This document shows positions 51,924 through 54,136 of a stretch of 64,000 nucleotides of DNA, in pieces (the stretch's first letter is position 1; each line of letters begins with the position of its first letter). Source of the stretch: Alphaproteobacteria bacterium (GTDB lineage: Bacteria; Pseudomonadota; Alphaproteobacteria; UBA9655); contig JAKFXB010000124.1 in assembly GCA_021731585.1 (NCBI GenBank), positions 9,313-73,312 on the forward strand. Reading direction: 5' to 3'. The notes beneath the pieces are model-generated. The model searched no databases. It had not been told where the DNA came from and saw only the letters and a list, made by a program, of their open reading frames with translations. The position numbers were made by a program, and so were the translations under genes.

Positions 51924-52721
51924 TTATTCGATGATCATCCAGTCCGGAGTATAAGAGGTAAAGGTGGCTTTCCCACAGGTGAGAACTTTATCACCTTTTG
52001 CAGCCTCAATACGCAAGAGAGCCAGACCATACCCGTTACAATTTGAGCGCATTTCACCCACTGCCATGTCTCCAAGAAAGACCTCAGCGCCACTTTCTGG
52101 AGCCGATCCTTCTATCTTAACAGGAAAAAGGCGTTTCCGAACAAGGCCACGGTATTTTGTACGGGCCGTCAGCTCTTGACCCATATAGCATCCCTTGGTC
52201 CAGCTGACGGCATTGAGCTCATCAAGACCCGATTCCAGCAAAATCGCTTTTTCGGGAAGCAAATCAATGCCTCCTTCAGGAACACCTAATTTCAAACGGT
52301 GAAGATCATACTCCTCTGCCGAGGCATTGGGTTCTGTCTGTCCTATAAGACGTGCACCAAGAGCTTTTAATCGTGGATCGGGATAAGCTTTCACGGGAAG
52401 ATTTCCCTCCCCCCAGAGAGCGTAAACTTTCAAATCCGGCCGCGCCTTTAAGATGACCTTTGAGCGCAGCTTAAAAAGACTTAGCTTCTTTAAAAACGCC
52501 TCAAGACGCGCAGACTCGACATCAAGAAGATATTTTCCCTCTTTCTCTGTAATAAAAAAATCAAATAAAAACCGCCCTTGTGGTGTCAAAAGAGTTGCGT
52601 AAACAGCTTGCATTGGACTGACAAGGTTTATGTCGTTGGAAATGAGCCCTTGAAGGAAGGTCGCTTTATCTTCGCCGTCAATTTCAATCACCCCGCGATG
52701 GGGAAGTTCAGCAATAAACAT
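51924..52721 (-). CDS. ygfZ: folate-binding Fe-S cluster repair/tRNA-modification protein YgfZ (CAF17 family)
   Basis: LLTPQGRFLFDFF and the signature KGCYMGQE. The ATG at 52721 (MFIAELPHRGVIEIDG) is preferred; the track start at 52760 overlaps the upstream gene. Confidence 0.85.
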   Translation of the reverse strand: MFIAELPHRGVIEIDGEDKATFLQGLISNDINLVSPMQAVYATLLTPQGRFLFDFFITEKEGKYLLDVESARLEAFLKKLSLFKLRSKVILKARPDLKVYALWGEGNLPVKAYPDPRLKALGARLIGQTEPNASAEEYDLHRLKLGVPEGGIDLLPEKAILLESGLDELNAVSWTKGCYMGQELTARTKYRGLVRKRLFPVKIEGSAPESGAEVFLGDMAVGEMRSNCNGYGLALLRIEAAKGDKVLTCGKATFTSYTPDWMIIE

Positions 52722-52741
52722 AGATACTTTCTTTCTTATGA
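52678..52741. repeat. direct repeat A (ygfZ leader plus first 14 codons)
   Basis: 52678-52723 is identical to 53993-54038 (46 nt). Similarity continues imperfectly to 52741/54056. Confidence 0.95.
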
Positions 52742-53908
52742 TACAATCTCGCCAGCCCAAAGAGCTTGAAGAAAGTTTTCGATGGGCAGGATATCAAGCG
52801 TAAAATCTCCATCAATTATACGTCTAGGACGCAGAATTTGGCAAACCATTATGGATTTTTTAGGTTTATGTTCTTGGTGAAAGGCACGAAGTCCTTTCAA
52901 GTCTGATGATAATATCACATCAGAAATCTTAACTTCGAGGGCCACTTGACCGTTATTTAAAATAAAATCAACCTCCAGCTTGCTTTTGGTTCTCCAATAA
53001 TTAATTTCAAAATCTACTTCATTCAAGTATTTATAAGCCATCAATTCCGTGAGAATATAATGCTCAAGAGCTTTTCCGACTTCACTTCCTTTGAGGTCAG
53101 TAAATTGTTGATGTTTAATGAATGAGGCAAGACCAACATCAAACAAATAAAACTTTGGTGTTTCTGAGATAATGTTGCGACTTACTTTCTTCCGATAAGG
53201 CAGAATGATGTATCCCATCAAGGTATCCACCAAAATTTGGAAATATTCCCGAATTGTTTTTGCATCAATGCCAGCTTGGCGCGCGATGTTTGAATAATTC
53301 AGCATTTCCCCATTGGAAAAGCGAAGAGCATCAAAAAATCTAGAAAAAGCAGGCAAGTTGCGGACTATGCCTTCAGCCTGAATTTCAAGAATAAGATAAT
53401 CCTCGATATAAGAGCGGAATGACTTGCGATAATTGGGAGAGAGGTAATGAGATGGCAGGCCGCCCTGATTGAAGATTCGCAGAAGATCAAACTCATCAAA
53501 TTCAGGAAAGCATAAGGGAAAAAAATGATATTTCCAGGCTCTGCCCCCTAGCATGTTGACGCCATGGCGCTTCATTTGGCGTGCGCTTGACCCACAAAGG
53601 ATGAACTGGAATTCAGTATTCTCAATCAGCCAATGTATTTCATCCATAAGAGCAGGGACCTTTTGAACTTCATCAACGATCACAAGTTGATTGAGCGAGG
53701 TGTCCTGATGTTTAAGAAGTTCTTCACGAAATATAGAAGGCGCTTTTAAAAACTCAAGGGCTAGATCAGACTTTAAAAGATCATAGACAAGGGCCTTGGG
53801 GAAGGTATGTTTGAGGTAGGTTGTTTTTCCCGTCTTACGTGCCCCCCAGATGAAAGCCGATTGACGCTTTGGAAGATCAATTGTGAGGTATCTCTTTATG
53901 TAACTCAT
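52736..53908 (-). CDS. AAA+ P-loop ATPase with C-terminal DUF4143 / PD-(D/E)xK-like module (diverged paralog of 1433-2605)
   Basis: 390 aa with Walker A GARKTGKTT and Walker B LVIVDEVQ. C-terminal LEVDFI...ALEVK. The stop lies 14 nt upstream of the ygfZ ATG. Confidence 0.85.
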   Translation of the reverse strand: MSYIKRYLTIDLPKRQSAFIWGARKTGKTTYLKHTFPKALVYDLLKSDLALEFLKAPSIFREELLKHQDTSLNQLVIVDEVQKVPALMDEIHWLIENTEFQFILCGSSARQMKRHGVNMLGGRAWKYHFFPLCFPEFDEFDLLRIFNQGGLPSHYLSPNYRKSFRSYIEDYLILEIQAEGIVRNLPAFSRFFDALRFSNGEMLNYSNIARQAGIDAKTIREYFQILVDTLMGYIILPYRKKVSRNIISETPKFYLFDVGLASFIKHQQFTDLKGSEVGKALEHYILTELMAYKYLNEVDFEINYWRTKSKLEVDFILNNGQVALEVKISDVILSSDLKGLRAFHQEHKPKKSIMVCQILRPRRIIDGDFTLDILPIENFLQALWAGEIVS

Positions 53909-53909
53909 G

Positions 53910-53974
53910 ACTTATCCGGAACATACTCCCTAAAAGTTGGCTTTTTTAGGAGTATACTCCCTAAAAGTTTGAAA
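53910..53974. repeat. repeat B: 65-nt block with three copies of a 14-mer (direct, inverted, direct) abutting the ATPase start
   Basis: atactccctaaaag at 53923-36 and 53954-67, with an imperfect inverted copy at 53941-55. The block recurs at 54072-54136 with 5 mismatches. Confidence 0.9.
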
Positions 53975-53976
53975 GT

Positions 53977-54036
53977 CTATAGGTGTTTCAATTCAATTTC
54001 AATCACCCCGCGATGGGGAAGTTCAGCAATAAACAT
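53977..54036 (-). pseudogene. duplicated, truncated ygfZ 5' fragment (19 codons then stop)
   Basis: It translates to MFIAELPHRGVIEIELKHL*. The first 14 codons are identical to the real ygfZ start. Confidence 0.6.
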
Positions 54037-54056
54037 AGGATTTCTCTTTCTTATGA
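53993..54056. repeat. direct repeat A' (copy of 52678-52741)
   Basis: Perfect 46-mer plus an imperfect extension that still contains TCATAA (last codon plus stop of the ATPase ORF, on the minus strand). Confidence 0.95.
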
Positions 54057-54071
54057 CCTTTTGATATCAAA

Positions 54072-54136
54072 ACTTATCCGGAGCATACTCCCTAAAAGTT
54101 GTCTTTTCTAGGAGTATGATCCCTAAAAGTTTGAAA
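54072..54136. repeat. repeat B' (copy of 53910-53974, no ORF attached)
   Basis: 65 nt with 5 mismatches to B. It is separated from A' by only 15 nt. Confidence 0.9.

Follow-up and report, generated by a model that had tools for sequence, protein, structure and literature searches.

How did the beginning of a host gene come to stand twice around a gene for an ATPase-nuclease? The question is raised by a stretch of 64,000 nucleotides (nt) from an uncultured alphaproteobacterium, referred to here as the window, in which the start of ygfZ is found at the live gene and again, beyond the ATPase-nuclease gene ATPase-2, as a dead copy next to a second set of the sequences bordering that gene. Coordinates are window positions throughout, and L-numbers denote the related loci and contigs that were compared. 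The account favoured here, with a probability of about 70%, is that a minimal one-gene cassette, made of a promoter/operator region and one open reading frame (ORF), became established at the 5' end of ygfZ, was doubled together with the ygfZ start, and lost the ORF from one copy, leaving a relic that ygfZ probably uses as its promoter. The subject is a horizontally moving defence-type gene, the anatomy of which is well documented.

Anatomy of the ygfZ locus

On the minus strand, the elements follow each other in the order B', joint, A', filler, B, ORF, A, where A and A' carry the ygfZ start and B and B' the sequence upstream of the ORF. A repeat finder returned A (52678-52741) and A' (53993-54056) as a 64-nt repeat of 92% identity with a perfect 46-mer in common, and B (53905-53981) and B' (54067-54143) as a 77-nt repeat of 87% identity. 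A 46-nt exact repeat cannot arise by chance within 64 kb. The live ATG of ygfZ, at 52721, lies 14 nt past the stop codon of ATPase-2, while the dead start opens a frame of 19 codons that runs from 54036 down to 53977. The copies are arranged head to tail and separated by a novel joint, as in a tandem segmental duplication. Within this joint, the first 7 nt of the filler ATTGAAACACC repeat the ATTGAAA that precedes it.

An earlier note on this DNA had described both repeats, the ATPase ORF and the dead ygfZ start, and sequence reading together with the repeat finder found them as described, including the head-to-tail order and the loss of one ORF. Two details have changed. B and B' had been given as 65 nt with 5 mismatches; the repeat is real, and its extent is 73-77 nt with 9-10 mismatches. 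The spacer between B and A' is now, as a small correction, the 11-nt filler between A' and B (53992-53982).

The earlier note had also raised an assembly artefact, and this explanation has been ruled out. Assemblies GCA_021733385.1 (L001) and JGI 3300038435 (L002) match the window at 99.95% identity across 11 kb, with the same arrangement. Two Logan contigs are 100% identical to it, one of which (L004, window 54022-52694) reaches from inside A' through the filler and B to inside A and spans the A'-B joint. The tandem structure is thus present in at least four assemblies. No boundary is visible at the junctions in the composition profile.

Table 1. Positions of the elements at the ygfZ locus and of related features elsewhere in the window
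Feature	Position	Strand	Remarks
B', promoter/operator region of the ORF-less relic	54071..54143	-	Operator repeats 54111-54129 and 54080-54098; ends GGATAAGTT; 87% identical to B
Relic deletion joint TTGATATCAAAAGG and TCATAA	54051..54070	-	Remnants of ORF codons 1-6 and last 7 nt
leader' and A'	53993..54050	-	Resident ygfZ leader 54050-54037; dead ATG 54036; 44 nt of coding sequence; frame ends 53977
Filler ATTGAAACACC, 11 nt	53982..53992	-	Illegitimate joint, ygfZ codon 15/cassette left end
B, 5' region of the live cassette	53909..53981	-	-35-like TAGACT 53979-53974; -10-like TATACT 53956-53951 in palindrome GGAGTATACTCC; operator repeats 53949-53967 and 53918-53936
ATPase-2 ORF, 390 amino acids	52736..53908	-	AAA_14 and DUF4143; PADLOC PDC-S01
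Leader (52735-52722) and A, live ygfZ start	52678..52735	-	Leader differs at 5-6/20 from leader', L005 and L095
ygfZ (CAF17/GCV_T family), live host gene	51924..52721	-	Pfam; protein 82-87.5% identical to the L005, L095, L098 and L102 orthologues
Relic of ATPase-1 5' region AACTATGCAAAT, 12-nt trace after the ygfZ stop	51908..51923	-	Complete cassette there in L098 and L102
Solo ATG-proximal operator half TTTTAGGGAATATGTTCCGGATAA, third B-like remnant	47046..47069	+	Upstream of rpsB, no ORF behind; kept in orthologous metagenome contig L093
ATPase-1 cassette at cdd	1406..2677	-	ORF 1433-2605; 23-nt direct repeats 1406-1428 and 2655-2677; 49-nt 5' region

The region upstream of the ORF belongs to the cassette

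B had been taken in the earlier note as a border of host DNA. The closest homologues of ATPase-2, with 80-84% identity, occur elsewhere: in L085 the gene lies upstream of pth, in L087 it stands between an EamA gene and a PIN toxin pair, and in L089 it lies upstream of kdsB. In each of them the ATG is preceded by two to three copies of AACTTTTAGGGAGTATACTCC, at a spacing of 31 nt and ending in GGATAAGTT, and similarity between the homologous cassettes ceases at the stop codon. An operator of like type is also kept upstream of the ATG at two further loci, L163 (66% identity) and L165 (62% identity), with TTGACA-16-TATACT at the equivalent place in L163 and its -10 box within a palindrome. The corresponding sequence of B in the window is TAGACT-17-TATACT, with the -10 box in a 12-bp palindrome and the operator repeated once more 31 bp further downstream. 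Since a B-type region precedes homologues at five unrelated loci, B is cassette DNA rather than host DNA; this promoter/operator region belongs to the ATPase gene itself and travels with the ORF. Among ygfZ loci of other species, none of the 80 nearest has an ATPase homologue within 5 kb. The possibility that B' is the native ygfZ promoter, suggested by L005, where it stands with no ATPase gene, was dropped because the region is found before homologues at unrelated loci.

As delimited by these alignments, the transferred unit is the segment from the -35 box to the stop codon. Limits at the start and stop codons had been proposed before; the stop codon holds, and the start codon gives way to the -35 box. 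No attC-like recombination site was found at the 3' end of the cassette, where homology stops at the stop codon, and the repeat finder detected no inverted repeat pairing the two cassette ends. Most likely, the palindromes over the -10 box are bound by the winged-helix domain of the protein itself, which would amount to a putative autorepression.

In L165, a second copy of the operator region (L165:2283-2336 and 2444-2497) lies 161 nt upstream of the first; the spacing of B' and B in the window is 162 nt.

The ORF-less relic and its conservation

A hypothetical deletion in full-length homologues would leave the 5' region, followed by codons 1-6 of the ORF (less 4 nt) and by its final 7 nt. Upstream of A', the joint TTGATATCAAAAGG-TCATAA matches such a product at 27/34 positions, including an exact ATATCAAAAG. 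On this match, B'-15 nt-TCATAA is a cassette with its ORF deleted. The earlier note had seen in A'-B' the same unit lacking its ORF and in the 15-nt joint a loose resemblance to the first ATPase codons; both observations hold, the joint keeping remnants of codons 1-6.

The same deletion joint has been found in four lineages, L005, L095, L098 and the window. In L005, the closest relative in the genome collection, the relic is the only element before a single ygfZ start, and the same applies to the metagenome contig L095. The sequence upstream of both relics aligns collinearly with the B' flank rather than the B flank. Counted by eye from aligned sequences, B' differs from the single relics of L005 and L095 at 4-5/73 positions, the three B'-type relics differ from one another at 4-5/73, and B differs from each of them at 9/73. 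The leader' differs from the L095 leader at 1/20, and the first 44 nt of ygfZ show 1-3 differences among lineages.

Conservation of the relic is high. Identity amounts to 101/107 (94%) between the window and L095 and to 95/107 (89%) between the window and L005, as against 64-70% at third codon positions of ygfZ in the matching comparisons. A relic conserved beyond the third codon positions of the adjacent gene is probably functional, and it probably serves now as the ygfZ promoter, captured from the cassette. Promoter capture would explain why a remnant without an ORF is conserved like coding sequence. For the live cassette a similar role is suggested by the arrangement that the earlier note had pointed out, with ygfZ directly behind the ATPase gene: no terminator-like site occurs between the two, and a cassette without a terminator that abuts ygfZ probably drives this gene from its own promoter.

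Dispersed relics that bear the joint, as expected of a miniature inverted-repeat transposable element (MITE), were not found beyond the orthologous ygfZ site. Of five matches in a metagenome scan, one was a ygfZ relic, another the half-site at rpsB and a third a different solo half-site, while the remaining two are probably due to chance. A scan with Rfam found no RNA family near threshold.

Age of the duplication

The live ygfZ of L098 and L099 (GCA_019748065.1) is preceded, in this order, by a decayed A' (32/44), the filler ATTAGAACACG, TATAGAT as the left end of the cassette, a one-site B, the deletion joint and the leader. The A'-filler-B joint of L098 is homologous to that of the window, with its filler at the equivalent place; from the ATG of A' through the filler into B the two are about 79% identical, with a single 1-nt gap (count by eye). 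A joint common to both lineages must have been inherited from a common ancestor, and the duplication is therefore old. The view that the event was recent has to be abandoned, the ORF-less copy being likewise common to L005, L095 and L098. Among the lineages seen, only the window has an intact ORF at the ygfZ site. In L102 only a trace of the cassette relic is left, and an acetyltransferase ORF (L102:2761-3957) extends as far as ygfZ and is called as fused with it.

The perfect 46-mer invites another explanation, in which DNA carrying the full cassette of a related strain entered a genome that possessed only the relic. A single homologous crossover in the conserved opening 46 nt of ygfZ, together with an illegitimate joint, would suffice, whether a circle was integrated in Campbell fashion or illegitimate recombination was facilitated by homology, and the outcome would be relic-A'-joint-cassette-A. 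A perfect 46-mer next to leaders differing at 5/20 and B regions differing at 9/73 is the pattern expected of a crossover in the 46-mer. Moreover, B with its leader is equidistant from the three relic copies, leader' is nearly identical to the L095 leader, and the filler looks like a microhomology joint. The joint of L098, with its homologous filler and an ORF-less copy after it, weighs against such an import, as it places the event before the lineages split; hence the perfect 46-mer is not simply the scar of a fresh crossover. The first 44 nt of ygfZ are also highly conserved anyway, and no lineage of the donor type was found among the 80 nearest ygfZ loci. Passive import is accordingly regarded as improbable.

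A second cassette at the ygfZ/cdd boundary

The window contains a second gene of the same type, ATPase-1, next to cdd. In L098, L099-L101, L102 and one further contig, the gene order is ygfZ, ATPase-1 and then, on the other strand, cdd, glyS and glyQ. L005 lacks ATPase-1, and its ygfZ and cdd are convergent with 3' ends that overlap by about 40 nt (L005:5768-5807). Such an overlap is also present in L006 and L008, which lack ATPase-1 as well, its length in the three loci being roughly 25-40 nt. Set against the empty site, the filled sites have gained a palindromic 5' region of 49 nt, the ORF and another 5-6 nt. On either side of this insert stands the 23-mer CCTACATCCCCGATTGGATGGTT, a duplicated sequence in which one strand codes for the end of ygfZ and the opposite strand for the end of cdd. 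Judged from these sites, the cdd repeat is a duplicate of the stretch in which ygfZ and cdd overlap at their 3' ends, and ATPase-1 originally stood between both genes. The duplication of a host gene terminus, noted earlier for the ygfZ and the cdd locus, is therefore real at both; at cdd its identity had to be corrected, from the end of cdd to the shared 3' ends of ygfZ and cdd. The 5' region of ATPase-1 holds a 35-nt palindrome, TATGCAAATATAACATCAGATGTTATATTTGCATA (2607-2641), with two 16-nt arms and a 3-nt centre, which adjoins the start codon. The palindrome is kept in L098, L102 and L095, in the last of which the ORF is broken after five codons.

In the window, ygfZ is removed from ATPase-1/cdd/glyS by about 49 kb (2678-51907), a stretch in which rpsB, tsf, pyrH and two tRNA genes lie; in the relatives L005, L098 and L102 the genes so separated are adjacent. 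Both junctions of this gap bear diverged copies of the ygfZ 3' end and part of the ATPase-1 5' region. This arrangement could be read as the replacement of the resident ygfZ body by a block of about 51 kb (2678-53992) that brought along a cassette and a ygfZ of its own, one end of the event being the A'-filler-B joint and the other the dead 23-nt ygfZ 3' fragment at 2655-2677. The contiguity of tkt-gap-...-ygfZ-(ATPase-1)-cdd-glyS in relatives, against the roughly 49 kb that intervene in the window, agrees with such a replacement, and so does the resemblance of the two dead ygfZ fragments to the L095 allele (leader' 1/20 and 23-mer 0/23 differences). The block event is largely refuted by L098, which has the A'-filler-B joint and still keeps ygfZ next to ATPase-1 and cdd; the two junctions are thus separate events. 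The block would also carry the core genes rpsB, tsf and pyrH, and its YgfZ is no outlier, with pairwise identities of 82-87.5% to the others, which share 84-91% among themselves. For the same reason the window ygfZ was rejected as a foreign allele, since these identities do not single it out. Replacement by such a block is consequently considered very improbable.

A 344-amino acid protein encoded at 49860-50894 (+), near ygfZ, has a weak relative (23%) between ygfZ and cdd in L007 (L007:6023-6874). The interval that follows ygfZ may be prone to variation.

The ATPase-nuclease and its family

ATPase-2 (52736-53908) and ATPase-1 (1433-2605) both encode proteins of 390 amino acids that combine the Pfam domains AAA_14 and DUF4143, and they are only 25% identical to each other. 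PF13173 (AAA_14) scores 73 bits in ATPase-2 (cut-off 27) and 91.9 bits in ATPase-1, and PF13635 (DUF4143) 106.5 and 153 bits, respectively; the corresponding E-values for ATPase-2 are 3e-20 and 1.4e-30. PADLOC assigned both to PDC-S01, with E-values of 3.2e-46 for ATPase-2 and 9.3e-86 for ATPase-1. An alignment of 82 sequences, the two window proteins among them, shows no variation at the Walker A lysine, at the Walker B DE or at nuclease residues E282, D314, E325 and K327. The architecture of ATPase-2 comprises an AAA+ domain, a winged-helix-like domain and a PD-(D/E)xK nuclease. An AlphaFold2 model (pLDDT 90.7, pTM 0.91) shows the AAA+ core and a C-terminal alpha/beta nuclease-like domain, and residues 185-255 follow a helix-strand pattern consistent with a winged helix; a previous model built from 10 sequences reached a pLDDT of 61 and was not used. 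The best fold matches of the model were DNA-bound ORC1/Cdc6, STAND ATPases, MuB and TnsC, all with low TM scores, and those to MuB and TnsC concern the generic AAA+ core. A sequence search of the PDB found no match to a solved relative.

PDC-S01 has been described as a single-gene candidate defence family that is very common, horizontally transferred and unvalidated (PMC12988326). One representative that was tested in E. coli gave no protection against T4, T5 and T7 (bioRxiv 10.1101/2024.09.26.614923). PMC3424549 lists DUF4143 among the PD-(D/E)xK families without a known function. By its domains, its motifs and the PADLOC match, ATPase-2 is a candidate phage-defence ATPase-nuclease of this family.

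The family was sampled further with 37-42 distant AAA_14-DUF4143 members from viral contigs. Palindromes scoring at least 10 within 120 nt upstream of the ATG were found in 12/37 family genes, compared with 15/765 genes of ygfZ loci (Fisher p = 1.5e-10) and 5/160 neighbouring genes of the family loci, and several of them are centred on TATAAT. Of two further scans of viral contigs with clade-specific alignments, one returned three loci, on contigs already in the first sample, and the other none. In L141/L142:3859-5181, it is the gene beside the ATPase homologue that stands between the copies of a direct repeat, 60 nt long.

The duplications might be the work of the protein itself. The ATPase-nuclease would then be a mobility enzyme that makes staggered, widely spaced nicks and inserts the unit, generating long target duplications of variable length (60 nt at ygfZ and 23 nt at ygfZ/cdd), and the live copy would be a second insertion at ygfZ codon 15, beside an older copy that has decayed. 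The left breakpoint of the duplicated segment falls within about 4-11 nt of the natural left end of the cassette; for ATPase-1, the empty site of L005 is clean and the filled ones show a target duplication of 23 nt; and the nuclease and ATPase residues are intact. Tight flanking direct repeats scoring at least 14 are enriched in the sampled family genes, 5/42 against 8/725 controls. The longest case cited, in L103 (2317-2450 and 3684-3817), is a 134-nt direct repeat of 93% identity around an AAA_14-DUF4143 gene next to a PIN-type (VapC-like) toxin gene, where it spans most of the spacer between two convergent genes, and L124 has a flanking repeat of 28 nt. Several observations speak against this mechanism. 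The sample is small and drawn from viral contigs, and not all of its repeats are target duplications, the flanking repeat of L104 being a second copy of the operator palindrome. None of the three closest homologues (L085, L087, L089) has a flanking repeat of at least 10 nt, so that the duplication of host gene ends is no obligatory signature. Neither terminal inverted repeats nor a fixed duplication length are found, and the cassette contains no transposase or recombinase domain, only AAA_14 and DUF4143 according to Pfam. The leader copies differ at 5/20, though a target duplication should begin identical. Finally, identical copies in different contexts, as recent mobility would leave, were not found: one protein (P0186), carried by many contigs, of which 24 were read and 10 places shown, always has one and the same context. 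An active role of the enzyme in its own insertion is thus unlikely, if somewhat less so than passive import.

Proposed history of the locus

According to the preferred account, an ancestor of this alphaproteobacterial clade would have acquired the cassette directly upstream of ygfZ. The segment consisting of the cassette, the ygfZ leader and the first 44 nt of ygfZ would then have been doubled head to tail, with the copies joined by an illegitimate junction that includes the 11-nt, partly templated filler. An internal deletion would have removed the ORF of the upstream copy except for codons 1-6 and the final 7 nt, with the promoter/operator left in place. The full state of relic, A', filler, live cassette, A and ygfZ is kept in the window, while L005 and L095 keep the relic only and L098 the A', filler and relic, reductions that can arise by recombination between the repeats. 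The cassette promoter would now probably drive ygfZ.

The origin of the second copy could lie in a tandem duplication, by template switching or illegitimate recombination, with later loss of the ORF, or in a second insertion, either active or by recombination with a related strain's DNA. The start of the duplicated segment at the natural left end of the cassette and the clean 23-nt target duplication of ATPase-1 favour a cassette-specific process. Three insertions without flanking repeats and the variable length of the duplications argue against a transposase-like mechanism. Selection can explain the duplications as well, because an insertion that hits the ends of essential genes, where these overlap or are coding, is viable only when the ends are duplicated.

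Certain points weigh against the account as a whole. A perfect 46-mer is unexpected in an old duplicate and would imply gene conversion, keeping A and A' alike, or a recent recombination. No lineage with a single full-length cassette before ygfZ was found, and the five lineages leave room both for a tandem duplication followed by ORF loss and for a second insertion beside an older relic; either may be right. Read-through into ygfZ and the use of B and B' as promoters are inferred from sequence features, and the promoter match of B in the window is only 9/12, which is not above chance for the region. A stronger promoter-like site, TTGCCA-18-TATAAT (11/12), is located inside the 3' end of ATPase-2 at 52844-52815 (-); lying about 95 nt upstream of ygfZ, it could drive this gene alone.

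Significance and comparison with known systems

PDC-S01 has been reported among the most common candidate defence genes in prokaryotes. The ygfZ locus and its relatives define the transferred unit to the base, and the operator/promoter carried by the unit itself provides a directly testable hypothesis of autoregulation. The locus also indicates that a remnant devoid of its ORF can be retained by the host as a promoter. For studying insertion, it provides sites in matched empty, filled and relic states. If the flanking duplications are a product of the protein itself, they would, if true, reveal a new kind of mobile element. More speculatively, and with low expectation, PDC-S01 genes could be autonomous minimal mobile elements. 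Each would be one transcription unit that begins at the -35 box and finishes at the stop codon, and its palindromic operator would be bound by its own product. The ATPase-nuclease would insert it at the ends of essential genes with long, variable duplications, and takeover of the downstream gene's expression by its promoter would make it hard to lose.

Among known systems, ATPase-2 resembles PDC-S01 (AAA_14 and DUF4143, COG1373) in its Pfam domains, PADLOC match, Walker A and B motifs and PD-(D/E)xK motif. The published descriptions of PDC-S01 that were found contain no cassette limits, palindromic operator/promoter, ORF-less relics or flanking duplications. Unlike an integron gene cassette, the unit carries its own promoter region and no 3' attC site, and unlike a MITE-like element, its relic is confined to the orthologous ygfZ site.

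Insertion sequences can supply an outward promoter to a neighbouring gene. The cassette is similar in that the host gene next to it is probably driven from a promoter that arrived with the insertion, and in that a remnant has probably been kept for this purpose. It differs from insertion sequences by the lack of a transposase, of terminal inverted repeats and of a short target duplication of fixed length (23 nt, about 60 nt, and none at three loci).

Free-standing homing endonuclease genes pass through a life cycle of invasion, decay and loss. Here, likewise, a nuclease gene occupies a defined site by a conserved host gene, and lineages are full, decayed or nearly devoid of it. Homing copies the gene into an empty allele with no duplication of the target, whereas the target of the cassette is duplicated at both window loci and ATPase-2 possesses an AAA+ motor.

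In autorepressed defence or toxin-antitoxin modules, a palindromic operator lies over the -10 box. The cassette shares this feature, with a palindrome over the -10 hexamer directly upstream of the gene and a winged-helix-like domain in the protein. In contrast to such modules, its effector and putative repressor would be one polypeptide.

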